A stretch of DNA of 64,000 nt, taken from positions 28,085 through 92,084 of the forward strand of contig JAQVSV010000001.1 of the NCBI GenBank assembly GCA_028700325.1. Reading direction: 5' to 3'. Each line of letters begins with the position of its first letter. The stretch's first letter is position 1. The notes under the pieces were generated by a model. The model saw nothing but the letters and a program-made list of their open reading frames with translations. It was not told the origin of the DNA and made no database searches. This DNA comes from Elusimicrobiaceae bacterium. GTDB lineage: Bacteria > Elusimicrobiota > Elusimicrobia > Elusimicrobiales > Elusimicrobiaceae. Below are positions 32,801-50,939 of the stretch, piece after piece. The translations under genes were made by a program, and so were the position numbers.

Positions 32801-35800
32801 TCATGTTTGTTGCCGGGCACGGAATTCCGGGCACGGCCGGCTATCAGGCCGAAAACTGGGAGAGCAGCTGGCTTGACGGCGCCGCTGCCAACGCAAGCTG
32901 CCTTTCCCTGAACTACGATATAGGAATGCTGCGCGCCGCGACTGACTATTCCCTGCTGCTGTTCAATGATTCAAACATGAATGACATCTATGACGACGGC
33001 GAGAAATTTTCATTGCTGGCGGGCCCGATTTCGATCGCGACGGGGATGGTCGTCAACCGCGATATCACGCTGGTAGCCGTTTCTACCGTGCCGGTCATGC
33101 CGTCGGCCATAAGTACATACGCCGTGACGGCAAGCTCGATTGTATGGACCTGGCCTTCGGTGTTCGGCGCTACCGGCTACATGCTTTTCTTTACCAGCGG
33201 CAGCACCGTCACTCTTTCAGCGACGTCTTATACGGAAACCGTGGGCGTTCCCAATACCAGATCGGGTCTGTACGGAGTGGCGGCTTACAATGCGATCGGG
33301 CTTGGCCCGGTAAAAACCGTGGAGAACGCTGTGTACACAAGGGCGGCAAAGGTTGCCCTGTCCGTCATGTCGGCGGATAATGTGTCCGTGCGGCTTGCTG
33401 TTGACCGGGCGGGCAATCCCGCCGCGACGGCTGTGAACATTTATCGCTCGGCCAATTCCACGGCGGCGTATGTGCTGGTAAGCTCGCTTACCGCCGGAGC
33501 TACCCAGTTTGCCGACATTTACGGTGTTGTGCCCGGCGTGCAGTACTGGTACGCCGCCACGGCGTTCAACGGCAATTATGTGGCGGGGGAGACGTCCGTG
33601 CCGGTTTCAACGGTCACGCCCTCGGCGGCTGGCGCCGATTATGTGCGCGGCACGGTATACTATTCCGGGCGGCAGCAGGGTAACCTGCGCGTGGAGCTGT
33701 TTGGGTCCGCCGTGCGCGATGGCTGGGCCGTGGCGAACGGCAGCGCGGCTTTTTCCGCGATCGCTTCTTTCAACGGGTTCATGCTGGCCGGAACCGAATC
33801 CGGCGGGGTGTATAAATCCACCGACGGGATCAATTGGGTTTCCGCCGCGACGGTGAGCGGAAGCGTAAAGAGTTTCGCGCAGAACGGTTCGGTGTACTAT
33901 CTGTCAGGCTCGAAAGGGATTTATTCCGGCTCCGGTTCGGGCAGCTGGTCGCTTGTGTACGCCGCGTCATCCGGCATGGGCAGGCTGCTGGTTTATAACG
34001 GGAAAGTCTATTGCGGGGACGGGAACCGGCTGGCGCAGTCCTCCGGGTCCGGGTTTGATGTTGCGGAAACGGGCATCCCAGCTGCGCGTGCCATTTCCAG
34101 CCTTGCTGTGTTCGGCGGTTATATGTACGCCGGCGTGCTGCCTTCCGTTTCGGCCTATACGGAAACGCAGGGCGATTATGTGTATCGCGCGGCGCTGGCC
34201 TCGCTCGGTTCATGGACTGCCAGTTTGAACGCCAAGATGCTTGGCGTGTATGATCTTGCGGTATGGAACGGCCGGTTATATGCGGCCAGCGGCAATTCGG
34301 GCCTGATATTTTCGCTGGAAACGGCGGACGGAGTCTGGTCGAATACGGCCGTAGCAGCTACCAAAGTGGTGAATTTCAGCAGTTTCAGGGGCCAGCTGGC
34401 GGTCGCGGCGCAGACCGGGCCGGGCGTGCTTGTTTCGCCCGAACACGGGCGGTGGGCGGCGGTTGCCCCGTCCGGGGTTGTTTATATGAACGGGCTGTGC
34501 CAGTTCAACGGCAAGCTGTACGCCGCGGCGGCGGCAAGGCTGTACGCGGGATTCGCCCAGCCGGCTTACAGTGTCGTGTCGCCCGTCCAGAGCCAGAATT
34601 CGTTTTATATTTCCGGCGTGCCTGCCGGCACGCCGTATTATCCGCGCGCATTTGTTGACGTTACCGGCGACGCGGTGCTGGAGCCCGGCGAAGACAGCGT
34701 TTTTTACTCTACTTCGGTCATGGCCGCGGGCACGGCGAACATGACGCTCGCGGTTTCGACCGGCGCGCCTGCGGCGCCCGGCGCGCCGTCAGCCTGCGCC
34801 GTAAACGGGGTCGTCAGCGTGTTGTGGACGGCGCCGTCCTCCGCGTCCAATCTGCTGGGCTATCGCGTGTACCGCAGCACGGCGCAGGCCGGCCCTTACG
34901 CGGAAATTTCCGGTTCTGAACCGGCCGGTTACGTGCCGTGGAACAGAACCTCGTTCAGCGACTCCAATCCGCCGAGCGGTTCTGTCTATTACCGGCTCAA
35001 GTCGCTGGACTGGGGTTATAACGAGAGTGCCGGCGTTACGGGGCTGCCGGTGAATGTTTTGCAGCCGGGCCGGATAGAGGGTTCGCTATACAGCCTTTCA
35101 GCGTCCACATCGGTTCAGTATTATGTGACCGTATCAAGCGTTTCCAGCCCGCTGGGCGCGGCGCTGTATTCCATCCCGCTTGCGGACGGCCAGTCTTATT
35201 CCGCGCCCAACCTCAGCGACGGTCTGTACTATGTGCGCGCTTTCGCCGACGCCAACGCCAACCGTGTGTTTGACTCCGGGGAAGCGCTGGGCGCTTACGG
35301 CGGCATAGCGTATCCGTACGGCGTGTATGTGAATTACGGATCCGTCAGCGGCAGCAAGAATGTTACGGTGTGCCCCGTAACCCGGATCAGGCCGGGCGAC
35401 AGTCTGAATGTTGTAATCAGCTCCGCCGACTGCGAAATCCGCGACTCGGGTGTTTCGCGGCACGGGAAAATCTTTTCGTTCGAGGTGGGGTACGGCGACG
35501 GCAAAGTGTCGCCCGGTTCCGGCATCCAGCTGACGGCTTCGGGCGGCGGGCTTGGTTCGGCCGAGCTGAGGCTGATTGACCCGGATTTCAACGCGATGTT
35601 CAACACGGGCACGATTTATTACGGCGCGGATACCGAAGGCTTTTATTATCTCGAAGCGGCCGCGCCGGCGGAGAACGCTGCCGGCGATGTCAACGTGTCG
35701 CTTTACATCAATTCCAATTCCGGAGGAAAGATTACCGGCGTCGCCAGCTATTACGGCGCAAGCACGGGCACCGCGGTTTTCATGCTCTACCGCAAGGCGG

Positions 35801-38800
35801 AGTATGACGCGGGCAACTACTGGCCTGTTAATATGGCGACCGCTCCTGTGGCTGACAATGCCGCCAGTTTTACCATGTACGGCATGGAGAACGGCCTGTT
35901 TTACATGACCGCGTATGTGGATGTTAACGCCGACGGCGTGCGCGAAACGTGGGAACCTTACGGTTTTTACGGGTCAGTGCAGCCGGAAGCGCTGGCCGTG
36001 TCTAGCGGAGCCGCCAGCCGGGTATCGCTGGCGCTGACCGACCCCGTGATGGGATCCATCAGCGGCTATGTGACTTATTCCGGCAGTTCGCGCGGCAGCG
36101 TGCGGGTTGAAGCGCGCCAGCCGCGGGAAGGCAATGATTCGAACGACTATGTGCTTTACGCTTCCACAATGTTCGCGCGCGCTTCGGAAAACGTAAGCGC
36201 GCCGTTTACGCTTGCGGGGCTGCCGCCTTCCGCGAGCTATTACATCACGGCGTATGTGGACGCGAATGACAACATGTCAGGCGACACGCTGGAACCGAAC
36301 GTTTTTGAAGGACCTTATACGGTAGCGGCCGGCTCGGTGACGGAGAACGTGTCCGTTTCGATCGCCGATATCGGCACCGGCGCGCCCGGTTACGCTTCCA
36401 TTACCGGCACCGTCACCTATGCGGGCGGTGCGGTGACGAGCCGGCTTATGCTCGGTTTTTTTACGGACACCGAGGGAAGGCATATGCCCTATACCGCTTT
36501 CGTCGAACCGGACGGAGCCACCGACACCTGGCATTTCAGCCGCAGCGGAATTATGGGCGGCACCACTTATTATATCGGCGCGGTGCTTGATTTCAATTCC
36601 AACGGGTTTGACGATGCCGGCGAGCCGAAAACCATGTTTATGGACGGCGACGGCAATCCAGTCCCCGTTTATCCCGCGGCGGATGGCAGCGCGGCGGTTT
36701 CCATGACGCTGTCTGCGCTGCCGGACGGCAGCATTTCGGGAACGGCGCGGTATTACGGGTCGCAGGCCGGCAAGTACATGAGCGTCAACATTTATTCCGA
36801 CAACTGCCGCAGCGATTATTGCAGCGCGCGCTACCGCGTTCTTCTGACAACCGCTACGCAATACCCGTTCACGGGCGAATTTCTGCAGGACAGCACGAGC
36901 TACAGCATTTACGCCTATGTGGACGTAAACGAGAACCAGACCCAGGATAACGGCGAGCCGGATTATTCCAGTTATCCCGATAAACTTGAACTGGGCGAGG
37001 CGGACCGCGCCCTGACGGGCGTGGATTTTACTGTCACCCGGTCCGAAGACCGCTGGAATAACGCCACGCTCCGCGCTTCTTTCGATTACGACGGCGCGCA
37101 GCGGGGCGATGTGTACATGCGGCTGTATCAGAACGGCGGGGCGGTCGCTTCGCGGACATCCTCGCCCGTAAGCTATACGGACGGAGCGGTTGTGGTGATG
37201 GCGGGCCTTTCCACCGGCGTGTATACCGCCGACGCGTTTATTGATACCAACGGAAACGGGCTCTATGATTCCGTATTCGAGCCTTACGCGCAGGTCAAAT
37301 ACGGCGGCTCGGCGCAACTGGCTCTGACTTACAAAGATCCCGTGCTTTACGATGCCAGCGCGACGTTTAAAGATCCCGGCTCGGCGAGCCTGTCGAGCGG
37401 CGCGCTTACCGTGGCGGGCCTGATCGCGGTTAAATCTTCTGCGGCGGGCGCTTTGCGCACGCTGCTGTTCAAGTATTCCGACAGCGCGGACGCGATGCAG
37501 ATTCCTTTGCTTAACGGCCTGATCGCCCGTACGGCGGGCGTGGGCTGCAGTTCCTATTCTTTCACCGCGCTTTCATCGGGCAATTATCTGGTGCAGGCGT
37601 TTATTGACGTCAACGGCAATTACCAGCCGGATGACGGCGAGCCGTGGGGCCAGAGTGCGGTTGCCCTTGTGTCGCCGGTTCCGTCCAGCGGCACGCTGGC
37701 GCTTGATTTCGCGGTGTCGGACAGGACCTCCCTTAATGTCGGCGGCGAATTCGCGTATCAGGCGAGTTCCGCCACCGGATATGTGCAGGAACGGCCCGGT
37801 TCTTACGCCAGGCTGTTTTCGATCAGCGGTTCCGCCGGCGACGTGATCAACGCCGGCATGACGCCCGCCAGCGGGTTTTCGTATGCCCGGCTCTATCTGT
37901 ACGGGCCGTACATGAACCAGACGGGTTCCGCGCTGCGGTATAATCTGCTTGCCTCCGCCGAGGCCGACGCGCAGACCGGAGCGGCGAGCATTCTTGCTTA
38001 CAAACTTGCGCAGTCCGGAGTTTACACGCTTGCGGCGGTGGCTTACGAAGAGGCCGCGGCCGGCGGTTTCAAACTTAAATATCTGCGGTCCGGGCAGGGC
38101 AGCGGCTCGATTTCCGGAACCGTTGACTATACCGGCAGCCGCGGCGGAAAATTCATCGTGGCAATATTCGGCGACGCGAACGTATACACCGGTTCCGCGC
38201 TGCTTTACACAACTCTGCCGGTGGCCGGCGCGTTCAGTTTCAGCGGTCTGCCGGGCGGATCGAACTATTATATCGGCGCGTTTATTGACACCAACGGCAA
38301 CGGCATCCGCGATGCCGGCGAGGATTACGGTTATTATTCCGTGGCCGGCTCGACCGTGCCGCAGGGCGTAAGCGTGCTCAACGGGCAGGATGTGTCCGGT
38401 TTGCGGGTTACCGTCAACAGCGTATCCGATCCTGCCTCCCAGGCCCAGGTCAGCGGCGTGCTGAACTACTCCGGTTCGCTTGCCGGCAACGCCCGAGTGG
38501 AAGCGTGGACCAGTTCCGCCTACACCGGCACGCCGGCGGGAGTGCGCAATATTGCGTCGCCCGTATATCCGCAGGCGTTCAGCATGCAGGTGCCCGGAGG
38601 CTCGGCGTATTACTTCCGCGCTTATGCGGATTCCGCGCCCTACGGCGAGTTTGACTTGAATGCGGAAGCCGCCGGCGCGTACAATTCGGGCCAGCCGGTC
38701 TATTTGAAACAGGGCGGGAACTCTTCGCTTGATTATGTCATACAGCTTAACGATCCCGGATATGATCCGACCGCTTCCGCGGTCGGCGGAGAGGGTTATG

Positions 38801-41800
38801 CGGCGCTGGTTTCCACATCCGCGGCCGCTGCCTCTTCTTATTCCGGGCAGATCAATTTTGTCGCGGGCGCGAGCGGTATCCAGCAGGGCGGCCGCATAAG
38901 CGTGGCGCTGCCGTCCGGCCTGTACGCTACGCTGACCACCGTTACGGCATACGGGTACGGAGTAGTGCAGGCCAGCGCGCCCGGTTACGATTCCGGGACG
39001 CTGAGTGTCAGCGCGGGCCAGTCTTACGCCGAGCTGACCGTGCTTTCGGAAGCAGGCCTTGCCGCGGGCGCGACGGTGCAGATTACGATCGGCCCGCTCT
39101 ATCTGCCATGTGCCAGCGGCGATTTCGCGTTCAGCGTAGGGTCCAGCCAGAACGGCTCGCTGGCGCCGAAAGCGCTGCGCAGCGGCCAGCCGGTTCTGAG
39201 AATTCTGTCCGGCTCGGCCACGCGTTTTACCGGCAGGCCGGCGGACGCGGCCGAGTCTGCGGCGTATAACTTTTCCATAGTGTCGGGCGAGGATGTGCCG
39301 TTCGTGGCGACCGCGCTTGACACCTGCGGCAATCCCGCAATCGCCGGGTCAACCGTAAATGTGAATATCCATGCCCAGAAGCAGTCTACGGTGACGTGGA
39401 TGTACAGCGACGATCCCAGCGTGCTGTTCAGCACCGGTTCGCAGTTTGTTTCCGTCGCGACGGTGGCGTTCGCGGCGGGCATGAGCAGCGCGCCTTTCAC
39501 CGTCAGGGCCACGCAGGCCGGGGCGCAGAAAACCATGGTGTTCCGGTCGTCGTCGGGCATGTACACCGATTCGGTGTATTTCACCGCGCTTGCCGGGGTT
39601 CCGATAACCGGGGCCGCCGTTTCCAGCGCGGTTTACGGGGTGGGCAGATCCTCCGTCACGATCGTGCCCAGCGTGAATGCGACCGGCGGAGCGGCCTACA
39701 TAAATTTCAATCTCTCGCTCGCGAACACTTACGACAACTGGCAGGTGGTTATAGCGTCCAAACCGTTTATTGCCGGCGCGGCGGTCAGCGAAATCTGGCA
39801 GTTCTGGGGCAGCGGCACGCCGGTGCCCGGTAAAGTGGTATGGAACGGCAGGTACAGCTATAATAACAGCATTGTGCCGTCCGGCTGGTATTATGTGAAG
39901 ATAGCATACAGCGGATTTACCGACACCAGCCTCAAGATATATGTGCAGTCGCCGGAGGTTTATGGCGTCGTGCGGGACGAGTCCGTTTCGCCCGCGGCGG
40001 CTGTCGCCGGCGCGGTGATCAACGTGTTCAGCGCCAGCGGCGGCGGATACGCCAAAACCGCCGAGGACGGCAGTTATTCCATTCCCGGCCTTTCGAGCGG
40101 CTCTTACCGGTTCGAAATCGCGGCCAGCGGGTATGTGAAACTGTCTACGCAGGTGACGCTGGGCGCCGCCCGCACCAATGTTGATTTCGGCATGGAGAAA
40201 GCGGCGCAACTGGTTATCGTGCCGTCGCTTTCGCAATCCAACCCCTATCCGAACGATAGCGGCGGCGGGGTCAGCGCGTATGACGGAACGCAGAACTATT
40301 TCACCAACATCAGGCTGAAGGGCGGCACCACCTCGTTTGTTGCGGCTGACGTGTGGGACAGCCTGACCAACAGTTATGTTTCCAGCGACAGGATCGCGCT
40401 GGATGTCACTCCGGGCGTGTACAGCGTAAACGGCTATCTGGACAATTACGGAAACGTGTATGTCGAGCGGGTGGAAGTGTCCGCTTCCGGCGCCACGGTC
40501 GAACTGCCGGCTTTTGAGAGCCGGCGCAACGTATCGGGCACGCTGACGGTAGCTTCGGCTGCGTACAGCCGGTATGCGTCGCTGAACGCGGAACCTGTAA
40601 ACGGCAACAGCTCAAGCCATTGGGGCTGGGCATCGGCTGAAATACCCGCCAGCGTTTCCGGCGCGGCTTATCATGTGTACGGGATTGACGCGGGTTCCTA
40701 TACCATCAGCGCCACGGGCGACGGACTGCCGCGCGTGTCCACGCTGGTCTATATAACAGCCAATGATCTCAGCGGCGTTGACTTCGACTTCACCAAAGTG
40801 CAGAACAACGTCATACGCGGCACCGTCACGGTGACGGTGCAGGACGCGGCGCAGTGGTCTGCCCTTAAAACCCAGATGGACGGGAGTTTTATGGAGGCCC
40901 GGCTTACCGCATGGGCGCCCAAAGGGTCTGGCTATGCGTCTGAAAACGTGAAATTCACTTCCGCGAGCGTGAGCGGGCTGGTTGCCAGAGCCGCATACAC
41001 GCTTACGGGCCTTGACGCAGGAGCGGAATACCAGGTTTACGCGGAGCTCAGTCCTTACAGCGAGGGCGATCCCGGCGAATATACATCGGTGGGCGCGCTG
41101 CCCAAACTGGTCACTATTTCGTCCGCGACAGGCTTGGCGAACCTTGATATCGGTTTCGCGCGGGCGTCCGGCACGATAACCGGCACGGTGTATCTGCCGG
41201 AGGGCAGCAGTGATTTCGGCAATGTCGCCATGACGGGCATGGTGACCCAGTCGGAAAACCCCTACGAGATCGGGCAGGTGATGAACGAAGGCGGTTCGGA
41301 TCCCGTCACTTCATTTCCGGGTTTCAGGTGTTTTAACGGCGCGGCCGCCGTTAACGGCGTCTGTGCGGACGGCGTTAACATAGCCAGTTTCACGGTAACC
41401 GGACAGAAGACCAAGACCATGGACATGGTTTTCACTTACGGAGCCACCGGGTTGAGCAGGAGTTACAAACTGACCGTTGTCAACGGCAGCACGGTTACGG
41501 CGGTTGTTGACATGCGGGCCGACACCTATTCCATTTCGGGCGCGGTCATAAACCGTATCAACGCCAATTCGCTGAATACCATGGCCAGGCTGATCGCCAA
41601 TTCCACGGTCACCGTGCCGGCGGGTTATCCGGTGCAGGAAGGCACGCTGCCGATCGAAATGGTGCGGCGCAGCGCGAATTCTTTCTCGACTACCGTGGAT
41701 TATGACCCCAGTCTGGTGCGCGTGGGTTATATCACGCAAAGCGGCACCTATACCATAACGGGCCTGCAGGAGGGCGTTTATACGCTGCGTACCCGCGGGC

Positions 41801-44800
41801 TCAAGGAATGCACGACCTGTTCCGTCGCCGTCGCGCCGGTCGAGAAACTGGTTACCATGCGCCACGCCATTTATAACACGGGGCTGGTTGTGGTGGATTC
41901 GGCGCAGACCTCCACTTCCGCGGTCAATGTGACGCTGATTGACGGCTGGGACGTTTCCGGTTCCATTTCGCTGCCCAACGGCGTCAGGGATTCCCGCGTT
42001 TTCGCGCTTACCCTGACAAACAAGCGCGGGGACGTTGTGCGTTCGACCCAGATCGCGCTAGGCAACGTTTACACGGGCGAAAAAGCCAATTCCGCCTCGT
42101 ATACGTTCAGCCGCCTGCCAAGCGACGATTTTTACACGCTCGCCGTGGCGGACACCGCCACTTCAACTGCCGCGGTGCGCTATACCGCCGCGCCGATAAC
42201 GTTCCCGTCGCGCAAGGTGTCGCCTTCGGGTCTGCAGTCGAGCCTGACCGGCCAGAATGTTGAAATGGTGGTCGGCGCGCTGCTTTCCGGCAAATTGCGC
42301 GACGCCAATTCCGGCGCGCTCATTACCGTGACGAACGCCACACTGCTCGCGCCCAGTTTCAGCTGTTTCGCGCAGGCCAACCCGTGGGTTACGGGCGGCT
42401 ATTACGCTACGGTTTCTTCCGTGGCGGTCACGATCAACAACGCCACGGAATACAAGCCTGTCGAAGCGGACGGCACATTCCGCATCGGCCCCGTGATGCC
42501 GGGCGTCACCTATGACGTGCAGTGCAGGCAAACCGAATGGAATTCCGGCTATATCCTGCGCGGCGCGCAGAATTATTCGCCCGCTATCGTGGCGGCGGTC
42601 AAGCCTTCTGCCGGCGAGAGCCGCGATCTTGGCGTGCTGGATCTGAAGCAGGGGCAGTCCATCACCGGCACCGTCAGGGATTCGGCCGGCGCGGCTGTTC
42701 CCAACATGCTGGTCAAAGCCAAACCTTCCTCGTCCGATATTGACATGGAAGTGAAGACCTATACCAGCCAGACCGGCGCGTTCAGCCTGTGGGTGTCCAC
42801 TTATGTGTCGCGGTATTATGACATTACCGCCAGCCCCCGCGAGTATTACGACGGGGTGTCCACTGGCACGTTAATGTATAAGGAGGTAACGCTCCGTAAT
42901 CAGGATCTGCAGGACCGGACTACCTTTGCGTTCACGCTCAGCCCCGTGCGGGGCGGAGTCGCTGGCCGTGTGATTACGGCGGACGGCGGCGCGCTTTATT
43001 ATCCTTACGGGGATCTGCGCGGCTATCCCGCCGCCGCGGTTTTTCTCCAGCCTTACGGGGTGGTGCCCGTGAATAATCCGCTGGGCGACATTGAAACATA
43101 TACCCAGTCGGACGGCAGTTTCGAGGTGCCCGGTGTTTCGACCGGAATATATACGCTCAAGGTTGTCAGCATCGGTTACGGGTTCGCGTCATCCACGGTC
43201 AATGTGGCCAGCACCGGCACGCTGGATGCGGGCACCATAACGCTGCGCCGCGGCGCGAGCGCCGAAGGCACGATACTGAAAACCGACGGCAGTTCGCCCA
43301 GCACCGATGAAATCGGTTCGGTGATAGCGGTTTCGCCGGACTTCTCGGAATACCTGTTCGGCACGCTCGACACGGATGCGCTGTCGCGGTCAGTGCAGAG
43401 CTACAGCCTGACGGGGTTCAGCACCGGAACTCTTTATTCCATCGCGCTGGTGTCGCCTGACGGAGAGGATATTACGTTCCCCGTCGAGGGCCAGGTTTCG
43501 TTCGACGAGGCCAGCTCGACCGATACCGTCACCGCCGACCTGACTTATGCGCCGGGCGGCGTTGACTGCGGCGCGGTGGCCAAGAAAACCGGAACCGCCA
43601 CGTTCAGCCTCCAGTTCACCTGCTCGCGCCAGTTAAGAAGCCTCACCGCGGCGGACAGCACGGTTTCCCAGCTGGTGTGGCTTAGCAGCATAACCGCAGG
43701 CGGCGCGCCTGTTTCCGGCGACGACGGAACCGGCACGCTCGGTTACGGCGCCATCACCGCCGACCGGCGCGGACTGGCCGCCTCCTACGTCATGTCGAGC
43801 ACTGAAGACAGCCGCTTCAGCATTTTGCTTACGGCATATTTCAACGCCATTGATCCGGCCACAGGCGACTATTTCCATATCGCCAAGCGGTTTGATTTCT
43901 ACACCGGCATCCAGAGCGCGACCAGCCGCCGCATCAGCAACCTCATCGGCGGCGCCTTGAACGTGGAATCGGCTGAAGGCGAAAGCGAAAGTTCGGGGCT
44001 GGATTTCAATCCCGGCTGTCTCAATAACTCGACCGGCACGTTCGTGGTGGATTTGTCCACCACGATCGGAATGCAGAAGTTTACCGCGCTCGAAGACGTG
44101 CCGGCAACCCAGTCGCTCGCTTCGGCGGGCGCGCGCGACCGGTTCGGCGCGGGCCGCCTGCCGCAGGAAATTGTGGACGCGAGAAAAGCGTTCGCGGAAA
44201 AACGGATAACGGCTTCATTCCGCGCGCAGTCGAGTTCCACGGCCACTTACCGGGCGATCAGCTCGTTCTACAATATCTTCCTGCCCGCCGGCATCAACCA
44301 TATCCTGCGCCAGAACGCGCGGCTGACGCTCAGTTATGACGCGGTGTCCGACCCCAATAACGTCAATGTCTGGTACTATAATCCCGACACCGGGCGGTAC
44401 CAGCTGGAAGCCAGCAACCGGACCATTGACACCATCAACAACACCATCGCGGTGGATGTGGACCACTTCTCCACCTTCGTGGTGATGGAAACGCAGCCGG
44501 TGTATACCTCCACCACCGCATACGGCGGGCTGAATCTGGCGGCGTACAACTTCCCCAACCCGTTCAATCTTGAAACCAAGACGAAGCAGGTCAACACCTC
44601 GCCGGGTTCCGGATCCTATACTGCCGGACAGAATATCACCACGGAGGGCACTGTTATAAGGGTGGCGGTGCCGGCGTCGGCTGTTTCGGGCACGGGCCAT
44701 ATAAAAATCTATAATATGGCCGGCGAACTGGTGCGCAAGATCGGCATCAGCGGCGTTGCGGGCGGCGCCTACGAGTATTTCGCGTGGGACGGGCGCAACA

Positions 44801-44907
44801 ACAGCGGCGAAAAAGTGGCCAGCGGAGTTTATATCGGAGAGGTTAAGGTCGATGATCAGCAAACTTTCTTTAAAATGGCCGTAGTCAAGGATTCAAAATA
44901 CCGTTAA
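26863..44907 (+). CDS. giant mosaic secreted surface protein (6,014 codons) with T9SS-type/FlgD-Ig-like C-terminal sorting domain
   Basis: The frame is uninterrupted for 18,045 nt. GGAG lies 6 nt before ATG 26863. An alternative ATG at 26914 is also SD-preceded. Signal peptide ..KYLCAAVAAAALSAGAAQA. It carries many recognisable beta-rich modules (see sub-features). No competing ORF on any frame approaches this length. Confidence 0.88.
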   Translation: MNSENMAVVPPEKRENIMARFFKHLTKYLCAAVAAAALSAGAAQAYTISGYVRDQSGNSISGVSLNGFYPGATIYATTDGAGFYSLSFPTAGVSCAVVPQVSGPGVYFTPERADFTLTQDVTSDFVQNVSAQDGGQWEFAEVAAGVSARLAANESGIPFMAYAVEQGSAVYASIAGGSIQALFTALADTAAVPAPAVYGGHSFMAYKSLSSNIMLASDETGVWTSTIAAGAGPSLDVSLRVNSFGRYLLYRGTFLTLMHDGAESVVSTDAACGLKSALAVDSSGTAHVLYSCSGSPQRLFYAKLSGGEWVSALVASASEDTFDSVSLAVDSGALPFASYVLASSADGKRTLFAALPSESFTAEVSTGIVSYNAVAFINETGRSVLFTATDGSGVPYLQNRTYLSSAEFSDSMISQAYARQISLVSEIGPYISYATPENRIFAGRMATSSVTCAIYGAVTQNSAGLSGVTVSVYGGASSHTATTDAGGYYAVTGLSTGSYVITPALAEKVFEPAQATVNLQSDTEIDFTAATKTYSVSGSVAAGGVGLASVSVTGVSGGESASAVTDSSGVYLLTGLPAGVCTVAPGRAGYEFAPAASSFTLSANTTGIDFEAALSQLYIAGYIITEASEPVAGATVTAYNGQISWMTVSDAAGLYSFALASGSYLLAPVKEGYAFTPSSRTVSLASASISGVSFVAVSTASIPLYALAGQVTKNSAGLSGVSIGITDGSHSEEAVTDGSGNYGFYDLMAAQYTVTPQLEGLEFSPAYSVVTVSGDVSGVDFTAEDSGVLSATVTAVNTPQAYAWENYPAFTLALSADRNVFVGSVTVSFADSGVSYNDIFAMFLYENGTPVASSYNSDSTLGSAVKREALMPVSLSISTATRTFTLMIQPKSSALGKTVYPVFAGFSSAAGQSVTPLPVGGNVALVGYKAYAASSGGLATSISLTAGQSALIVAQGQWQYSSTGTAGPDGVSGSVCGTGCQLPGSPRGMLLARIGYYSTVFYPVGSSATITSPAGAATDSVYLSINDDYFTDNSGGLFVLPQIVSRVIVWTGAGGTEYAAEPLNWNTGVVPANGDTVLFSSMVAKACAWNISAQPKLITLYYYPGALNVVGSYTLLAETLTINNSRLRMSGTAAGARPYISVGTLNAIDSELVFSDAMGVSADNFSVLRGTVSITGSDYAGFGGCSGHSVVLENAALDISSVAFQNAGTISVRGGSVAKFDNVSVNLSAEASSPMVTVYGLSGYNTFDRWNFYNYGGSAVYNVISTGNASGAQVVFANAGGNYMGSVHSLNLDGALRWEPDGGGTAALALTAVYSATDTYTYRFEVTTVTGTPVAAGSAAAGAKSILFSGLTAPATYYIKAYADENGNAVADGYEPKGKAAVALVANSSGAASVALADFGKAAGYLYSVSQSGKVLGQAYSSGALVDQVELGSLADGTTVHWELYLPTGTYTLNAFVDVNGSGSRDSFEAGFSAENVEISKGAENYLGNAGLVSAAVSTVSVSAAAGHDGIIYARGGSATLFNLLASASGDPAVISSFSFFSAGSYYAAGAYAVNVTRDSNYNGLCDAADSVLGSAYANGGAAVPLTVSFNPVVVSTGQSERFCVTLAGAVALERNSTVGVSLASSGIGAANGHVEFAAITSTVTVKFNVDAAVAVSSFSGGTGTGVYLEPGMVVSLVSTGTWYISGSAAGAGGANYKGGILPDVNSGALMARVGIGPWFAVGSASSFTYTMIYSGELYFAMNKYQTSSASGNLLVDFSAVNPGNGAAGSVSYAGAKAQQLFIKAQSVSSGDVLASTSMALNGAGSYPYSLTGISTGTAFFIKAYWSDVSTSAVGQYREELTMYTGSVRTGLDFAVFDGYGALPLTVTYYGSFADKLIAHMIVGASEFERTVATGTQTLALPAPGIYRVAVFEDRNGDGEPAGLENMGMFGYDGPVALFEQNGGTVAVTVGGTSAPVAITVLPKGGLAGVGKICGLSGRFMFVAGHGIPGTAGYQAENWESSWLDGAAANASCLSLNYDIGMLRAATDYSLLLFNDSNMNDIYDDGEKFSLLAGPISIATGMVVNRDITLVAVSTVPVMPSAISTYAVTASSIVWTWPSVFGATGYMLFFTSGSTVTLSATSYTETVGVPNTRSGLYGVAAYNAIGLGPVKTVENAVYTRAAKVALSVMSADNVSVRLAVDRAGNPAATAVNIYRSANSTAAYVLVSSLTAGATQFADIYGVVPGVQYWYAATAFNGNYVAGETSVPVSTVTPSAAGADYVRGTVYYSGRQQGNLRVELFGSAVRDGWAVANGSAAFSAIASFNGFMLAGTESGGVYKSTDGINWVSAATVSGSVKSFAQNGSVYYLSGSKGIYSGSGSGSWSLVYAASSGMGRLLVYNGKVYCGDGNRLAQSSGSGFDVAETGIPAARAISSLAVFGGYMYAGVLPSVSAYTETQGDYVYRAALASLGSWTASLNAKMLGVYDLAVWNGRLYAASGNSGLIFSLETADGVWSNTAVAATKVVNFSSFRGQLAVAAQTGPGVLVSPEHGRWAAVAPSGVVYMNGLCQFNGKLYAAAAARLYAGFAQPAYSVVSPVQSQNSFYISGVPAGTPYYPRAFVDVTGDAVLEPGEDSVFYSTSVMAAGTANMTLAVSTGAPAAPGAPSACAVNGVVSVLWTAPSSASNLLGYRVYRSTAQAGPYAEISGSEPAGYVPWNRTSFSDSNPPSGSVYYRLKSLDWGYNESAGVTGLPVNVLQPGRIEGSLYSLSASTSVQYYVTVSSVSSPLGAALYSIPLADGQSYSAPNLSDGLYYVRAFADANANRVFDSGEALGAYGGIAYPYGVYVNYGSVSGSKNVTVCPVTRIRPGDSLNVVISSADCEIRDSGVSRHGKIFSFEVGYGDGKVSPGSGIQLTASGGGLGSAELRLIDPDFNAMFNTGTIYYGADTEGFYYLEAAAPAENAAGDVNVSLYINSNSGGKITGVASYYGASTGTAVFMLYRKAEYDAGNYWPVNMATAPVADNAASFTMYGMENGLFYMTAYVDVNADGVRETWEPYGFYGSVQPEALAVSSGAASRVSLALTDPVMGSISGYVTYSGSSRGSVRVEARQPREGNDSNDYVLYASTMFARASENVSAPFTLAGLPPSASYYITAYVDANDNMSGDTLEPNVFEGPYTVAAGSVTENVSVSIADIGTGAPGYASITGTVTYAGGAVTSRLMLGFFTDTEGRHMPYTAFVEPDGATDTWHFSRSGIMGGTTYYIGAVLDFNSNGFDDAGEPKTMFMDGDGNPVPVYPAADGSAAVSMTLSALPDGSISGTARYYGSQAGKYMSVNIYSDNCRSDYCSARYRVLLTTATQYPFTGEFLQDSTSYSIYAYVDVNENQTQDNGEPDYSSYPDKLELGEADRALTGVDFTVTRSEDRWNNATLRASFDYDGAQRGDVYMRLYQNGGAVASRTSSPVSYTDGAVVVMAGLSTGVYTADAFIDTNGNGLYDSVFEPYAQVKYGGSAQLALTYKDPVLYDASATFKDPGSASLSSGALTVAGLIAVKSSAAGALRTLLFKYSDSADAMQIPLLNGLIARTAGVGCSSYSFTALSSGNYLVQAFIDVNGNYQPDDGEPWGQSAVALVSPVPSSGTLALDFAVSDRTSLNVGGEFAYQASSATGYVQERPGSYARLFSISGSAGDVINAGMTPASGFSYARLYLYGPYMNQTGSALRYNLLASAEADAQTGAASILAYKLAQSGVYTLAAVAYEEAAAGGFKLKYLRSGQGSGSISGTVDYTGSRGGKFIVAIFGDANVYTGSALLYTTLPVAGAFSFSGLPGGSNYYIGAFIDTNGNGIRDAGEDYGYYSVAGSTVPQGVSVLNGQDVSGLRVTVNSVSDPASQAQVSGVLNYSGSLAGNARVEAWTSSAYTGTPAGVRNIASPVYPQAFSMQVPGGSAYYFRAYADSAPYGEFDLNAEAAGAYNSGQPVYLKQGGNSSLDYVIQLNDPGYDPTASAVGGEGYAALVSTSAAAASSYSGQINFVAGASGIQQGGRISVALPSGLYATLTTVTAYGYGVVQASAPGYDSGTLSVSAGQSYAELTVLSEAGLAAGATVQITIGPLYLPCASGDFAFSVGSSQNGSLAPKALRSGQPVLRILSGSATRFTGRPADAAESAAYNFSIVSGEDVPFVATALDTCGNPAIAGSTVNVNIHAQKQSTVTWMYSDDPSVLFSTGSQFVSVATVAFAAGMSSAPFTVRATQAGAQKTMVFRSSSGMYTDSVYFTALAGVPITGAAVSSAVYGVGRSSVTIVPSVNATGGAAYINFNLSLANTYDNWQVVIASKPFIAGAAVSEIWQFWGSGTPVPGKVVWNGRYSYNNSIVPSGWYYVKIAYSGFTDTSLKIYVQSPEVYGVVRDESVSPAAAVAGAVINVFSASGGGYAKTAEDGSYSIPGLSSGSYRFEIAASGYVKLSTQVTLGAARTNVDFGMEKAAQLVIVPSLSQSNPYPNDSGGGVSAYDGTQNYFTNIRLKGGTTSFVAADVWDSLTNSYVSSDRIALDVTPGVYSVNGYLDNYGNVYVERVEVSASGATVELPAFESRRNVSGTLTVASAAYSRYASLNAEPVNGNSSSHWGWASAEIPASVSGAAYHVYGIDAGSYTISATGDGLPRVSTLVYITANDLSGVDFDFTKVQNNVIRGTVTVTVQDAAQWSALKTQMDGSFMEARLTAWAPKGSGYASENVKFTSASVSGLVARAAYTLTGLDAGAEYQVYAELSPYSEGDPGEYTSVGALPKLVTISSATGLANLDIGFARASGTITGTVYLPEGSSDFGNVAMTGMVTQSENPYEIGQVMNEGGSDPVTSFPGFRCFNGAAAVNGVCADGVNIASFTVTGQKTKTMDMVFTYGATGLSRSYKLTVVNGSTVTAVVDMRADTYSISGAVINRINANSLNTMARLIANSTVTVPAGYPVQEGTLPIEMVRRSANSFSTTVDYDPSLVRVGYITQSGTYTITGLQEGVYTLRTRGLKECTTCSVAVAPVEKLVTMRHAIYNTGLVVVDSAQTSTSAVNVTLIDGWDVSGSISLPNGVRDSRVFALTLTNKRGDVVRSTQIALGNVYTGEKANSASYTFSRLPSDDFYTLAVADTATSTAAVRYTAAPITFPSRKVSPSGLQSSLTGQNVEMVVGALLSGKLRDANSGALITVTNATLLAPSFSCFAQANPWVTGGYYATVSSVAVTINNATEYKPVEADGTFRIGPVMPGVTYDVQCRQTEWNSGYILRGAQNYSPAIVAAVKPSAGESRDLGVLDLKQGQSITGTVRDSAGAAVPNMLVKAKPSSSDIDMEVKTYTSQTGAFSLWVSTYVSRYYDITASPREYYDGVSTGTLMYKEVTLRNQDLQDRTTFAFTLSPVRGGVAGRVITADGGALYYPYGDLRGYPAAAVFLQPYGVVPVNNPLGDIETYTQSDGSFEVPGVSTGIYTLKVVSIGYGFASSTVNVASTGTLDAGTITLRRGASAEGTILKTDGSSPSTDEIGSVIAVSPDFSEYLFGTLDTDALSRSVQSYSLTGFSTGTLYSIALVSPDGEDITFPVEGQVSFDEASSTDTVTADLTYAPGGVDCGAVAKKTGTATFSLQFTCSRQLRSLTAADSTVSQLVWLSSITAGGAPVSGDDGTGTLGYGAITADRRGLAASYVMSSTEDSRFSILLTAYFNAIDPATGDYFHIAKRFDFYTGIQSATSRRISNLIGGALNVESAEGESESSGLDFNPGCLNNSTGTFVVDLSTTIGMQKFTALEDVPATQSLASAGARDRFGAGRLPQEIVDARKAFAEKRITASFRAQSSSTATYRAISSFYNIFLPAGINHILRQNARLTLSYDAVSDPNNVNVWYYNPDTGRYQLEASNRTIDTINNTIAVDVDHFSTFVVMETQPVYTSTTAYGGLNLAAYNFPNPFNLETKTKQVNTSPGSGSYTAGQNITTEGTVIRVAVPASAVSGTGHIKIYNMAGELVRKIGISGVAGGAYEYFAWDGRNNSGEKVASGVYIGEVKVDDQQTFFKMAVVKDSKYR
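28210..29215 (+). repeat. four tandem carboxypeptidase-regulatory-like (CarboxypepD_reg/Cna-B-like) domains inside the giant ORF
   Basis: The repeating pattern is Y.(I/V)(S/A)G.V......L.GV.V........(A/T)(T/V)TD..G.Y....L..G.Y.(V/I).P...G(Y/L).F.P......(L/V).......DF.A, about 80-85 aa each. A fifth copy is at 26998-27240 and further copies are at ~39960-40200, ~42650-42850 and ~42950-43250. Confidence 0.65.
29620..29990 (+). other. LecA/PA-IL-like lectin-fold module 1 (giant ORF)
   Basis: LIVAQGQWQYSSTGTAGPDGVSGSVCGTGCQLPGSPRGMLLARIGYYSTVFYPVGSSATITSPAGAATDSVYLSINDDYFTDNSGGLFV tracks, from memory, Pseudomonas LecA (ITIVAAGWASYGP..GPQG...C....CGALVMKIG.....PV......LIYNDVPGTYGNNSGSFSV). Confidence 0.45.
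30000..30760 (+). other. right-handed beta-helix-like segment (giant ORF)
   Basis: Begins VWTGAGGTEYAAEPLNWNTGVVPANGDTVLF, as in autotransporter-type beta-strand repeats. Short repeats of about 20-25 aa rich in G/S/N/V follow. Confidence 0.4.
31800..32150 (+). other. LecA/PA-IL-like lectin-fold module 2 (giant ORF)
   Basis: MVVSLVSTGTWYISGSAAGAGGANYKGGILPDVNSGALMARVGIGPWFAVGSASSFTYTMIYSGELYFAMNKYQTSSASGNLLVDF has the same strand order as module 1. Confidence 0.4.
33090..33620 (+). other. two tandem fibronectin type III-like domains (giant ORF)
   Basis: P.AIS.Y.VTASSIVWTWPSV.GATGY.LF...Y..AYN..G.GP. and ..SV.L.V....NPAAT.V.IYRS......Y..V.......F.D....PG..YWY...AFNG. A third FN3 is at ~34770-35060 (VSVLWTAP....LLGYRVYRS...GPY). 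Confidence 0.6.
33715..34545 (+). other. beta-propeller-like insert with a BNR/Asp-box-like motif and Kelch-like NGxxY blades, nested inside one DUF2141-like module
   Basis: YKSTDGINWVS (Asp-box-like). Blades marked by VYNGKVYCGDG, VFGGYMYAGV, VWNGRLYAASG, SFRGQLAVAA and QFNGKLYAAAA. The host module starts at GTVYYSGRQQGNLRVELFGSA and resumes at NSFYISGVPAGTPYYPRAFVDVTGDAVLEPGED. Confidence 0.5.
39685..39950 (+). other. internal FlgD-Ig/T9SS-CTD-like domain in the middle of the giant ORF
   Basis: AAYINFNLSLANTYDNWQVVIASK...GKVVWNGRYSYNNSIVPSGWYYVKIAYSGFTDTSLKIYV has the same pattern as the true C-terminal domain (..IKIYNMAGELV...WDGRNNSGEKVASGVYIGEVKV). An invasin/Big_1-like stretch ATALDTCGNPAIAGSTVNVNI precedes it. 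Confidence 0.45.
44530..44904 (+). other. C-terminal sorting domain, T9SS type A / FlgD-Ig-like
   Basis: AYNFPNPFNLETK...HIKIYNMAGELVRKI...YEYFAWDGRNNSGEKVASGVYIGEVKVDDQQTFFKMAVVK matches the Por_Secre_tail pattern (NYPNPFN...I.IYD..G..V......G.....WDG.N..G..V.SGVY). Confidence 0.7.
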
Positions 44908-44932
44908 CGGCGGTTGCACAAAGGAGAATGAT

Positions 44933-45907
44933 ATGAAATATAACCCTAATATTACCGCCGCCGGTCCGACACAGCGAATCCCGAAAACGCTCGGCGCGGT
45001 TTTGTGCGCGCTGGTTTTTTCATGCGGCGCGGCTTTTGCCGCAGGGGAAGGCACCAGCGCCGCCCAGTTTCTGAAAATAGGCGCGGGGTCGAAACCCGGC
45101 GCCATGGCCGACGCATACACCGCGCTCGCCGATGACGTGTACGCGCTGTATTATAATCCAGCGGGCATGGCGCGGATGGCGCGTCCGCAGTTCGCGGGCC
45201 AGCTGACGAACTATTTTCAGGACTCGGATTACGGGTTCCTGGGGTTCGCCTATCCGTTCAGGGACGGCAGCGGCGAAACGCGGCACAGCATCGGCGTTTC
45301 GATCTATAGCCTGAAAGTGAACAGCCTTGAGCGGCGCACCCAGGATACCGACAATTCGGCCGGCCTGTTTGACGCCAGCGACATGGCTTATTCGCTCAGC
45401 TATGCCTGCCGCGTGAGCAGGGGGCTGGGGCTGGGCGCGTCGGCCAAATACATCCGCGGGCAGATTGACGACGTGAAAGCCAGCGCGTTCGCCATGGATT
45501 TCGGCGCGCAGTATGTATTCGAGCGGCTGAGCCTGGGCGTTACGGTGCGCAACGCGGGCTCGAAAATGAAATACGGTTCGGAGGCTGATTTCCTGCCGCT
45601 GGGCGTGTTTTTCGGGCTTGGCTACCGCGCCGGCGACGCGCTCGCGCTGGCGCTGGAAACCTATAAATACCGCGACTATAAACTGTGCGGCGCGTTCGGC
45701 GCTGATTATACGCAGGAGCTGGTCAGATCGGCGTTGTGGGGTTCGCTGCGCGCGGGCTATACCACCCATAACACCGATTCGGACGGGTTTAATGGAGCCA
45801 CTTTCGGCGCGGGGCTTAAATACTCCAAAACCGCGTTTGATTTCGCGTGGGTTCCGTTCGGCGATCTGGGCAACACGTTCAGGTATACGCTCTCCGTGCA
45901 GTTTTAA
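44933..45907 (+). CDS. PorV/PorQ-family-like outer-membrane beta-barrel protein
   Basis: Signal peptide ..LCALVFSCGAAFA. The block GTSAAQFLKIGAGSKPGAMADAYTALADDVYALYYNPAGMA is typical of the PorV/PorQ (UPF0164) family. C-terminal ..FRYTLSVQF. It starts 25 nt after the giant ORF stop. Confidence 0.6.
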   Translation: MKYNPNITAAGPTQRIPKTLGAVLCALVFSCGAAFAAGEGTSAAQFLKIGAGSKPGAMADAYTALADDVYALYYNPAGMARMARPQFAGQLTNYFQDSDYGFLGFAYPFRDGSGETRHSIGVSIYSLKVNSLERRTQDTDNSAGLFDASDMAYSLSYACRVSRGLGLGASAKYIRGQIDDVKASAFAMDFGAQYVFERLSLGVTVRNAGSKMKYGSEADFLPLGVFFGLGYRAGDALALALETYKYRDYKLCGAFGADYTQELVRSALWGSLRAGYTTHNTDSDGFNGATFGAGLKYSKTAFDFAWVPFGDLGNTFRYTLSVQF

Positions 45908-45952: not shown

Positions 45953-47845
45953 GTGCATATTTTACTTTACCAGCTTGTTCTGACTTTGTTTTTCGCCCTG
46001 TTTTTCACCGCCGGGCGGCTGGCGTTTCTTTTTACTTTTGCAACGGGCCTGCCGCTGAACGCCGACTATCTGAACGCGTTGGTTGCAGGGCTGCGGTTTG
46101 ATCTGGCCCTGTGCGCGCTGCCGTGCGGGCTGATCGCCGCGTTGCGGCTTTACGGCCGGGAAAGAACCGTTTCCGCCGTCGCGGCTGCGTTCGGCGCGGC
46201 GAGCGCGTTTTTTATTCTGGCCGAGTTTCCGTTTTACCGCGAATGCGGATCGCGCCTTAATCTCATGTTTTTCAAGTATATCGCCTGGCCGCATCAGCTG
46301 CTGACACAACTGGCCGGCACGATGTCGCTGCGGGTGGTGCTGCCGGTGGGCGCGCTGTTGTGGTTCGCGGGGAAATGGTCCGGCGAAGCGGCGCGCGCGC
46401 TTAAGCCGCGCGAAACTTCAAACCGCGCGCGTGCGCTGGCGTGGATCGCGGCGCTCGCTTTTGCGCTCGCCTGGGGCCGGCCCGCTTTTACGCCGCTTGA
46501 GCCGGCGGCGGCGTTTTTCTGTTCCGTCAATCTGCTTAATCAGGCGGCGCTGAACGGGCCGCACAATCTGGTTTTCAAGTCGGCGGAAAAGCTGCTGGGC
46601 GAGCAATACTCCAAAGCGCCGGACTCCGCAAGCGACGCCGCAACCGTTTCCTCCTATACCGGCCTGTGCGCCGGCGGGTTTGCGCCCGCCGTGGAACTGA
46701 CCCGCGGCGCACAGCCGAATGTGGCGGTGATATTTCTTGAAAGCGTCTATACGGGGCATCTTCAGGCGGGCCTGATGCCGAATTTAAGCCGGCGCATTAA
46801 ACAGGGTCTGTATTTCAGCGGCTATCATTCCAACGTTATCGGCACGATGCTGGGGCTTACGGCGGCGCTGTCGTCCTACGCGCCGCCTCCGCAGGATATT
46901 TATAACGCGACCGGGGTAACCGCGCCAACAGTGGCCCGGTATCTTGGCCGCGCCGGCTACGATTCGCTTTTTGTTTACGGAAAGGACGGCGTTTTTGAAA
47001 ATATGGAGGGGTTCCTGCGCCGCAACGGGTTCAGCCGGTTTTATGATTATAAGGCGTACAGGGAGAGCGATCCGGTCTGGCGCGAGATTGACGACTCGCT
47101 TCTTTTTGATAAACTGGACGGATTTCTGCGGCAGGCCCGCCAGCCGTTTTTCGCGGCGGCGCTTACCTCCGCCAACCATGTGCCCTACCATGTGGCGGCC
47201 GGTTTCAGGGGCCGGCCCGGCGAGAGCGCCGTTTCCCGCGCGGTGCGGTTCACCGATTACGCGCTGGAGCGGTTTCTGGCGCGCGCGGAAAACAGTCCGT
47301 ATTATAAAAACACCGTCTTTATCATAACAGCCGATCACGCTCCGCATTATCTGACGGGGTTTACCGAACGCGATTTCAATGTGCCGCTCCTGATTCTTTC
47401 CGCGCGGCTCAAGCGGACCGGGTCAGATGCGCGCATCTGTTCCGCTGTTGATCTGCCGCGCAGCATTCTTCGCATGTGCGGCGCGGACGAGCCCGCCGCG
47501 CCGTTTATCGGCGCCGGGCTGGAAGCCCGGGCACAGTATCCGGCGGCGTATGTGTCGAGCGTGTTCTATCACGGCGCGGTGACGCCGGAGGGGTTTTTCA
47601 TGCGCGGCAACGACGAGGCGCGCGGGCCGGCTCTGCCGCTGTACGCCAAAGGCACGGCTCCGCTTAATTACGCTTCCGCGATGTTTCGCACCAGCGCGCG
47701 GCTTGCCGCCGCGAAGGATTCGCGCCTGCTGAAAAATTTTCTGCCCGGCTGCATGGCCGGGTTCCCGCGTCCGGCGGATAAAAACATCCCTGAAAACAGG
47801 CATGCGGCTCCTGAGTTCAAACCGCCAGCGCGACAAAAACCATAA
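45953..47845 (+). CDS. LTA-synthase/phosphoglycerol-transferase-family sulfatase-fold membrane enzyme
   Basis: About 5 N-terminal TM helices are followed by an alkaline-phosphatase-superfamily domain: VAVIFLESVYTG, LTSANHVPY, FIITADHAPH. Confidence 0.72.
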   Translation: MHILLYQLVLTLFFALFFTAGRLAFLFTFATGLPLNADYLNALVAGLRFDLALCALPCGLIAALRLYGRERTVSAVAAAFGAASAFFILAEFPFYRECGSRLNLMFFKYIAWPHQLLTQLAGTMSLRVVLPVGALLWFAGKWSGEAARALKPRETSNRARALAWIAALAFALAWGRPAFTPLEPAAAFFCSVNLLNQAALNGPHNLVFKSAEKLLGEQYSKAPDSASDAATVSSYTGLCAGGFAPAVELTRGAQPNVAVIFLESVYTGHLQAGLMPNLSRRIKQGLYFSGYHSNVIGTMLGLTAALSSYAPPPQDIYNATGVTAPTVARYLGRAGYDSLFVYGKDGVFENMEGFLRRNGFSRFYDYKAYRESDPVWREIDDSLLFDKLDGFLRQARQPFFAAALTSANHVPYHVAAGFRGRPGESAVSRAVRFTDYALERFLARAENSPYYKNTVFIITADHAPHYLTGFTERDFNVPLLILSARLKRTGSDARICSAVDLPRSILRMCGADEPAAPFIGAGLEARAQYPAAYVSSVFYHGAVTPEGFFMRGNDEARGPALPLYAKGTAPLNYASAMFRTSARLAAAKDSRLLKNFLPGCMAGFPRPADKNIPENRHAAPEFKPPARQKP

Positions 47846-48012
47846 AGCCTTCTGCGCAATAATAAGGAGGGCCGGGCACGTTTAATGGAAGCAGAGCCGG
47901 CCCGGCCGGCGGTTTTGCGCGGCCGGATTTACTATAATGCTGTATGGCAGACAGGTTCTTTCTGTCCGGCGCAAACCGGACTATTTTTTGCGGCGCGGGA
48001 TAATCACCGGTT

Positions 48013-49266: not shown

Positions 49267-49417
49267 CCGCGCCGTTGCGCGGAGTTTCATTTACTAGCGC
49301 AAGGCTTTTCGCTATCATATTGCATATGGTCTGCGCCGGCGCGTCCGCGCGCCGGCGCAGGCGGGATTTTTGCGGCCGGTGCAGGGATTTTGGTTGAATG
49401 AACGGAGCGGGTTTGCT

Positions 49418-50890: not shown

Positions 50891-50939
50891 CGGCGCCGTT
50901 TTTTAAATCTCCTGCGCCCGCGGGCCGGATTTTTTCAAT

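Follow-up and report, generated by a model that had tools for sequence, protein, structure and literature searches.

A PorV-family barrel for each sorting-domain cargo: gene pairs in Elusimicrobiota that suggest a reduced type IX-like pathway

Does an Elusimicrobiaceae bacterium export its largest surface proteins by a pathway of the type IX kind and, if so, with one carrier for all of them or with one for each? The question arises from a stretch of 64,000 nucleotides (positions 28085-92084 of contig C60, assembly GCA_028700325.1; the whole stretch is called the window below), in which the gene for a protein of 6,014 aa with a putative C-terminal sorting/anchoring domain (CTD) is followed by the gene for an outer-membrane beta-barrel of the PorV/PorQ family. 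The assembly comprises 2.21 Mb in 128 contigs and is 99% complete. The system for type IX secretion (T9SS) is usually ascribed to Bacteroidota or the Fibrobacteres-Chlorobi-Bacteroidetes (FCB) group, and is described as having a proton-driven motor, one general PorV carrier and a sortase. A two-gene cassette that recurs in the genome, a CTD cargo gene followed by a PorV-family barrel gene, is present one and a half times in the window, and we lean towards a reduced type IX-like pathway, typical of Elusimicrobiota, in which every cargo is served by a PorV-like carrier/anchor of its own. The parts on which the argument turns are the following (window coordinates unless a contig is named).

26863..44907, + strand: giant cargo, an open reading frame (ORF) of 6,014 aa, with a signal-peptide-like hydrophobic stretch within the N-terminal 70 residues, repeats and FlgD_ig
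44530..44904, + strand: candidate CTD of the giant, its last 125 residues; PF13860, 40.5 bits
44908..44932, + strand: 25-nt spacer, with a GGAGA Shine-Dalgarno 7 nt before the ATG and no terminator-like site
44933..45907, + strand: PorV/PorQ-family outer-membrane beta-barrel (P0001), 324 aa, signal peptide, about 14 strands; NF033709, 158.3 bits
1..383, + strand: 3' end of a second PorV/PorQ-family barrel gene; NF033709 model positions 259-326, E 2.8e-6
C96:722-6085 (outside the window; loci L040 and L071): SprA/Sov-like protein, 1,787 aa, single copy, signal peptide, ending in TMTLQF

The original prediction, made from the window's sequence without database searches, had seen the PorV/PorQ N-terminal block in the gene 25 nt downstream of the giant. 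This is borne out: the string is present, the gap is exactly 25 nt, and P0001 scores 158.3 bits against the family model NF033709 (cut-off 90). P0001 also scores 27.0 bits against PF19572 PorV, equal to the cut-off, and lies at threshold for UPF0164 (PF03687, 21.5 bits against 21.4), while it stays below the equivalog models, with 67.7 bits for NF033710 PorV (cut-off 250) and 91.3 bits for NF033711 PorQ (cut-off 220). A profile of 12 aligned barrel paralogues (A1; 22-35% identical to P0001), run against the PDB, finds Flavobacterium johnsoniae PorV (6h3i_F) at E 2.5e-26 with both barrel halves covered. The AlphaFold2 (AF2) model of P0001, with a predicted local distance difference test (pLDDT) score of 83.7, has about 14 strands arranged as a barrel and an N-terminal plug; Foldseek returns the PorV chains 8gl6_F and 6h3i_F as its best matches (TM 0.71), followed by FadL (0.60). 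All 12 aligned paralogues match NF033709 and also both equivalog models, at best with E 3.7e-40 for PorQ and E 6.8e-24 for PorV; since they fit the PorV/PorQ superfamily but fall far short of either equivalog cut-off, they appear to form a separate branch of it. A FadL identity was considered and rejected, the FadL/TodX model PF03349 reaching 16.6 bits (cut-off 29.7) on the N-terminal 53 residues only and FadL in the PDB reaching E 0.04. The placement in an unrelated FadL or OmpA-like family, for which the original prediction had allowed, did not materialise.

The body of the giant consists of CarboxypepD_reg/transthyretin-type repeats (a Pfam scan gives matches to PF13620, PF13715, SdrD_B, DUF2141 and PEGA), and the protein is probably a surface adhesin. 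Its last 125 or so residues had been said to follow a Por_Secre_tail/FlgD-Ig pattern, of which the FlgD-Ig half stands: the tail holds NFPNPFN, IKIYNMAGELV and WDGRNNSGEKVASGVYIGEV, and PF13860 FlgD_ig passes on the extreme C-terminus with 40.5 bits against a cut-off of 27. The Por_Secre_tail half is seen only below cut-off. The type A models give 10.3 bits (PF18962, cut-off 27) and 12.2 bits (TIGR04183, cut-off 23), and the type B model CHU_C (PF13585, cut-off 27) gives 15.8 bits for the giant and 15.8-26.3 bits across the cargoes of the genome, all under the cut-off; within the genome, type A scores reach 24 bits at best, in the small C5 protein. The motifs of the giant's CTD, read alongside an alignment of 14 CTDs from the same genome (A2), are YPNPF-like, IYxxxGxLV and WDGxNxSGxxVASGVY. 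Six of the 11 CTD proteins scanned have a C-terminal PF13860 match of at least 27 bits (the giant, C119, C60b, C62, C5 and C16), C20 reaches 22.9 bits, C29, C102 and C111a have sub-threshold CHU_C matches only, and C122 has no match to a CTD family.

In NCBIfam the giant's tail is matched best by the CTDs of PorZ (E 6.6e-7) and PorU (E 5.4e-5), together with FlgD. The AF2 model of the CTD (pLDDT 68) has a beta-sandwich core whose top fold matches are PorZ, FlgD, the NucA CTD and PorU, all of them weak (E of at least 1e-3); as far as such a model can be read, these are consistent with the hidden Markov model (HMM) results. Judged by its sequence, the domain is best described as FlgD_ig-like, and its closest counterparts would be the uncleaved CTDs of PorZ and PorU.

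Is the neighbourhood of giant and barrel an accident of one locus? A genome-wide count with NF033709 gives 14 PorV-family barrel genes, 12 of which pass the cut-off (C5 and C109 only with summed stretches; C16 and C111:16139-16954 stay below it). An HMM built from the C-termini of the barrels' upstream neighbours retrieves 14 complete CTD-bearing ORFs and nothing else; a fragment at the start of contig C59 makes a 15th CTD. Twelve tandem pairs on the same strand, CTD gene first and barrel gene second, account for most of these 14 barrels and 14 CTD proteins, and the C5 barrel gene lies in divergent orientation beside that of a CTD protein of 183 aa. With the longest ORF taken as the start, gaps within pairs run from -127 to +130 nt; the real ones are mostly -4 to +25 nt, and several pairs overlap by 4 nt or have 4-25 nt between the genes. 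That 12 of 14 PorV-family genes should stand directly behind one of about 15 CTD genes, among an estimated total of about 2,000 genes, argues against chance. The expectation of several cargo-linked PorV paralogues is confirmed by this count, with 12 tandem pairs and one divergent arrangement.

The start of the window repeats the pattern. The barrel encoded by the open-ended ORF at 3-383 ends in HQITLSYKF, and NF033709 matches it with the last third of the model, as foreseen when a homologous barrel terminus was proposed for the truncated ORF at 1-383; its full gene (C60:27445-28467, 340 aa) scores 93.1 bits against NF033709, above the cut-off. The gene upstream of position 1, which the original prediction had singled out for checking, encodes a CTD protein of 530 aa (C60:25856-27448, outside the window; FlgD_ig E 6.2e-8) and overlaps the barrel gene by 4 nt. 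For the giant and P0001, co-transcription is likely because the spacer between them has no terminator, and P0001 would be the cognate partner of the giant's CTD. All cargoes whose N-terminus is present start with a signal-peptide-like stretch, and their domains (M36 metallopeptidase, C1 papain with a lectin domain, S8 peptidase, Kelch with fn3, fn3, BNR/sortilin propeller and transthyretin repeats) are, as far as domain matches tell, typical of type IX substrates.

The pairing extends beyond this genome. Among 151 Elusimicrobiota genomes sampled, NF033709 has matches in 144 and the CTD profile A2 in 138; most free-living lineages carry at least 13 scored barrels, with up to 61 first-look candidates. 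The ORF that precedes the barrel gene on the same strand ends in a CTD at 25 of 33 loci taken from other Elusimicrobiota and at 20 of 30 in two sister genomes, together 45 of 63. Numbers of CTDs and barrels per genome are correlated (Spearman 0.82, n = 93 genomes with full counts), and the two partners co-diverge: in Mantel tests the distances between CTDs and those between barrels are correlated at r 0.63 (p 5e-4) among the 12 pairs of this genome, and at r 0.69 (p 1e-4) when 32 pairs of three genomes are taken. The best barrel match and the best CTD match in another genome fall at the same locus for 6 and 8 of the 12 pairs, where 1.2 would be expected by chance. A single-protein search with P0001 returned three relatives, the closest from Elusimicrobiota metagenome-assembled genomes (MAGs). 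The closest barrel relatives of P0001 (43-47% identity) sit behind cargoes whose bodies are not related to that of the giant. What is conserved as a module is therefore CTD plus barrel; this is the heritable unit, and the passenger domains are exchangeable.

Several observations on these cargoes and barrels are recorded here in their own right. One CTD cargo of 1,244 aa (C111:11416-15150; L032:2420-6151, minus strand) has a signal peptide and matches to FliG_M (E 5e-10) and FliG_C (E 9e-11), which would be odd in a secreted protein. Many barrel paralogues continue past the terminal aromatic residue in tails of 20-100 aa that are Pro/Ala-rich or acidic, and one has an extension of about 330 aa with TPR repeats; given barrel topology, such tails should be periplasmic, where one possible role is to link the barrel with the cell wall or with an energiser. 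The tailed paralogues are the following.

C23:43016-44290
C85:3450-4763
C111:10065-11285
C20:1802-2845
C60:27445-28467
C111:15083-17047

The CTD segments at C5:54037-54300 and C59:1-160 are near-identical and differ in their last residues, probably from an assembly break at a repeated small CTD gene. Four PorV-like paralogues in the sister genomes G052 and G054 (loci L087, L088, L096 and L101) have one in-frame stop each (TAA or TGA) and may be pseudogenes or assembly errors. A CTD gene followed by a PorV-like gene (39% identity to P0001) also occurs on JAZDLC010000445.1 (locus L024), labelled a Planctomycetota MAG, and reflects either mis-binning or spread of the cassette beyond Elusimicrobiota.

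A type IX-like pathway calls for a translocon as well as carriers, and a candidate is present in a single copy. The 1,787-aa protein of contig C96 has TIGR04189 SprA as its sole NCBIfam match (E 1.9e-31, 108 bits), and a profile of 25 family sequences finds F. johnsoniae SprA and nothing else in the PDB (E 1.8e-18), aligning in four colinear stretches (profile positions 151-1187 with SprA residues 160-1561). Smaller queries (phmmer with the N-terminal 789 aa, a 6-sequence profile against the PDB, and a Pfam scan) gave no SprA match, and PF14349 SprA_N is matched by 3 of the 25 orthologues. Public relatives of the protein are all named "hypothetical protein" under the NCBI names Elusimicrobiaceae or Elusimicrobia. 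At 1,787 aa against 2,403 for SprA, it appears from these alignments to be a compact, divergent SprA/Sov homologue. The gene is present in single copy in 142 of the 151 genomes; CTDs are missing from all nine genomes without it, and barrels from six of these. Its conserved neighbours are an LptF/G-like permease and comF, not motor parts.

Searches for the other T9SS parts, run without a positive control, gave no match to GldM in the genome, no match to GldN in the 151 genomes and nothing above cut-off for GldL in the same 151 (very divergent homologues being possible); GldK gave only generic FGE-sulfatase matches (67 bits against 350), as in non-T9SS control genomes, and the PorU model NF033707 was matched only in its own CTD segment (model positions of about 976-1092), on the CTD proteins of the genome, the catalytic part remaining unmatched. 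Because these searches had no positive control and SprA shows strong divergence in the phylum, the absence of motor and sortase is provisional: the mechanism may be a different one, or motor parts may have diverged too far to be detected.

How might the parts work together? As the T9SS is now modelled, the substrate CTD is recognised by a carrier barrel that sits in SprA, and an input of energy then pulls carrier and substrate out together (PMC10994853). For type B cargoes the carriers are cognate barrels like PorP/SprF; their genes adjoin those of the cargoes, and they are proposed to be both carrier and anchor (PMC9143113). For Elusimicrobiota we infer a related sequence of steps. Sec would carry the cargo into the periplasm, where the PorV-like barrel dedicated to it, docked at the one compact translocon of the SprA/Sov kind (C96:722-6085), would recognise its CTD. 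The cargo would then cross the SprA/Sov-like pore, and the barrel-CTD complex would exit the pore sideways into the outer membrane, from whatever source the energy for this may come. The CTD would remain non-covalently bound to the barrel as the surface anchor, comparable to PorU and PorZ on PorV and PorQ or to SprB on SprF; since no sortase was detected, the PorV-family carrier is taken to stay with its cargo.

A bolder version, which we offer tentatively and consider rather doubtful, is a complete minimal type IX-like pathway in Elusimicrobiota with no other parts than a compact SprA-type pore and, for every cargo, one PorV-type carrier/anchor. It would do without the rotary energy chain of GldLM/GldKN and without attachment to lipopolysaccharide (LPS) by a sortase. 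If it were true, one barrel per cargo would be the ancestral state, of which Bacteroidota would have kept the PorU-PorV and PorZ-PorQ pairs as relics, and extraction of the carrier from the pore, which requires energy in Bacteroidota, would be spontaneous or powered by another system.

A number of results weigh against the reduced pathway. The CTDs fail the curated cut-offs of both type A and type B, no barrel paralogue of the 12 aligned comes near the PorV or PorQ equivalog cut-off, and the SprA-like protein, at 108 bits against a TIGR04189 cut-off of 200, has no Pfam match of its own. No motor was found, although release of the carrier-substrate complex in Bacteroidota needs a GldLM-driven energy chain. 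The pairing has exceptions, in that the C109 barrel (C109:32851-34107) has no CTD neighbour, neither the CTD subtilase protease of C62 nor the C59 CTD fragment has a barrel neighbour, and about 30% of the barrel loci of relatives have no detectable upstream CTD. The co-occurrence with the SprA-like gene is not corrected for phylogeny, and the six genomes in which this gene and barrels are both missing are all from a single genus, whose genomes are reduced; the remaining three SprA-lacking genomes belong to other genera.

In a different account, which we consider unlikely, the cargo-linked barrels merely receive and hold their proteins, and a general carrier or SprA alone exports everything with a CTD. 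The unpaired C109 barrel could be such a carrier. All 12 aligned paralogues match the PorQ model, for which the best E value (given above) is better than for the PorV model, and the CTDs of the cargoes resemble the retained CTDs of PorZ and PorU, PorZ being held by PorQ in just this way. Small relatives with 1-4 barrels, however, have similar numbers of CTDs and no obvious extra general barrel, and the current model of the T9SS has one barrel serving as carrier and anchor at once (PMC10994853).

The strictness of the one-to-one gene pairing and its translational coupling, reminiscent of TpsA/TpsB, together with the failure to detect motor and sortase, could also be explained without SprA, by a split autotransporter or two-partner-like arrangement in which a PorV-like barrel inserted by the beta-barrel assembly machinery (BAM) is itself the pore or platform and the SprA-like gene co-occurs incidentally. 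The barrel, however, has no POTRA domains, and as modelled, a FadL/PorV-type barrel with an N-terminal plug would be too narrow for folded repeat domains; the SprA-like family is single-copy and conserved across the phylum, and CTDs occur in none of the nine genomes without it. We regard this arrangement as quite improbable. A slimmer chance still is left to an uptake module, in which PorV/FadL-like barrels are substrate channels and CTD proteins their surface capture partners, as SusD is for SusC: the FadL-like fold and the several hydrolases among the cargoes would suit it, but many cargoes are giant repeat adhesins with no obvious role in substrate delivery, and affinity in sequence and fold is to PorV, not to FadL or TodX. 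The reduced type IX-like pathway with a carrier/anchor for each cargo remains the reading we prefer.

Other genes lie on the same strand around the giant and P0001.

24072..25616, + strand: FecR-domain secreted protein, first gene of the same-strand cluster; PF04773, E 4.8e-16; one paralogue elsewhere in the genome
25647..26873, + strand: 408-aa protein with a signal peptide and a beta-barrel-like C-terminus (ending in GVKYEF); overlaps the start of the giant by 11 nt
45953..47845, + strand: LtaS/phosphoglycerol-transferase-like membrane enzyme of sulfatase fold; PF00884, E 2.6e-33; 45 nt downstream of the barrel

The 408-aa putative barrel has no Pfam or NCBIfam match and, having no paralogue in the genome, appears specific to this locus. 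Neither it nor the FecR gene was accepted as part of the repeated cassette, the barrel being without paralogues and FecR having only one. Downstream, the first terminator-like site after the LtaS-like gene is at 47964, and this gene is probably on the same transcript as the giant-barrel pair; as a conserved partner it was rejected, being absent at the related loci L022 and L023. It is the first of four same-strand genes at 45953-52895, the others encoding a GT2-methyltransferase fusion, a ManC-like GDP-mannose enzyme and a polytopic membrane protein of 651 aa without a family, a set that suggests a module for modifying glycans or lipids. Beside the closest PorV relatives it is not conserved.

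If the reduced pathway is real, the known phylogenetic range of type IX secretion widens, and a natural minimal version would be at hand for asking which parts serve translocation and which energy coupling or attachment. It would also supply annotation rules for hundreds of "hypothetical" giant surface proteins and for the 1,800-aa SprA-like proteins of Elusimicrobiota. No paper that connects Elusimicrobia with PorV or with type IX secretion came up in full-text searches.

Which known systems come closest? The nearest parallels are the PorU-PorV and PorZ-PorQ pairs and the pairs of type B CTDs with PorP/SprF. In Bacteroidota, porU and porV are adjacent genes. PorU on PorV and PorZ on PorQ likewise place a CTD-bearing surface protein on a PorV-family barrel, and it is against the CTDs of PorZ and PorU that the giant's CTD scores best; they are, however, two special housekeeping pairs in a system that serves dozens of cargoes, whereas here there is a barrel for nearly every cargo, and the Bacteroidota pair includes PorU with its catalytic domain, of which none was found in this genome. 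SprB-SprF of F. johnsoniae, a type B system (PMC9143113), shares the dedicated barrel per cargo and the adjacency of genes. Its barrels are of the PorP/SprF family, in contrast to PorV/PorQ here, its CTDs are of the CHU_C type B, for which the cargoes of this genome stay under the 27-bit cut-off, and it works with GldKLMN, which was not detected here.

The general PorV bound to SprA (6H3I, 8GL6; PMC10994853) belongs to the same barrel family and fold as P0001, and a divergent SprA-like protein, probably a homologue, is present here too; in Bacteroidota a single PorV takes all type A cargo, in contrast to one barrel per cargo here. Cleavage of the CTD by PorU, attachment to anionic LPS and motor-driven release from the translocon characterise Bacteroidota, and none of them is supported here. 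The UPF0164/FadL-like barrels of spirochaetes are members of the same superfamily, with P0001 at the PF03687 threshold, but its match to the PorV family is far stronger, and we know of no CTD-cargo pairing for UPF0164. The original prediction had contrasted a cargo-specific shuttle with the single PorV of Bacteroidota: its linkage of barrels to cargoes holds, in 12 tandem pairs, whereas the concept of a cargo-specific carrier is not new, because PorP/SprF carriers are known for the type B CTDs of Bacteroidota (PMC9143113). What is new is the use of PorV-family barrels as partners of individual cargoes, and the context in which they occur; the module of CTD and barrel looks like a portable cassette for surface display.

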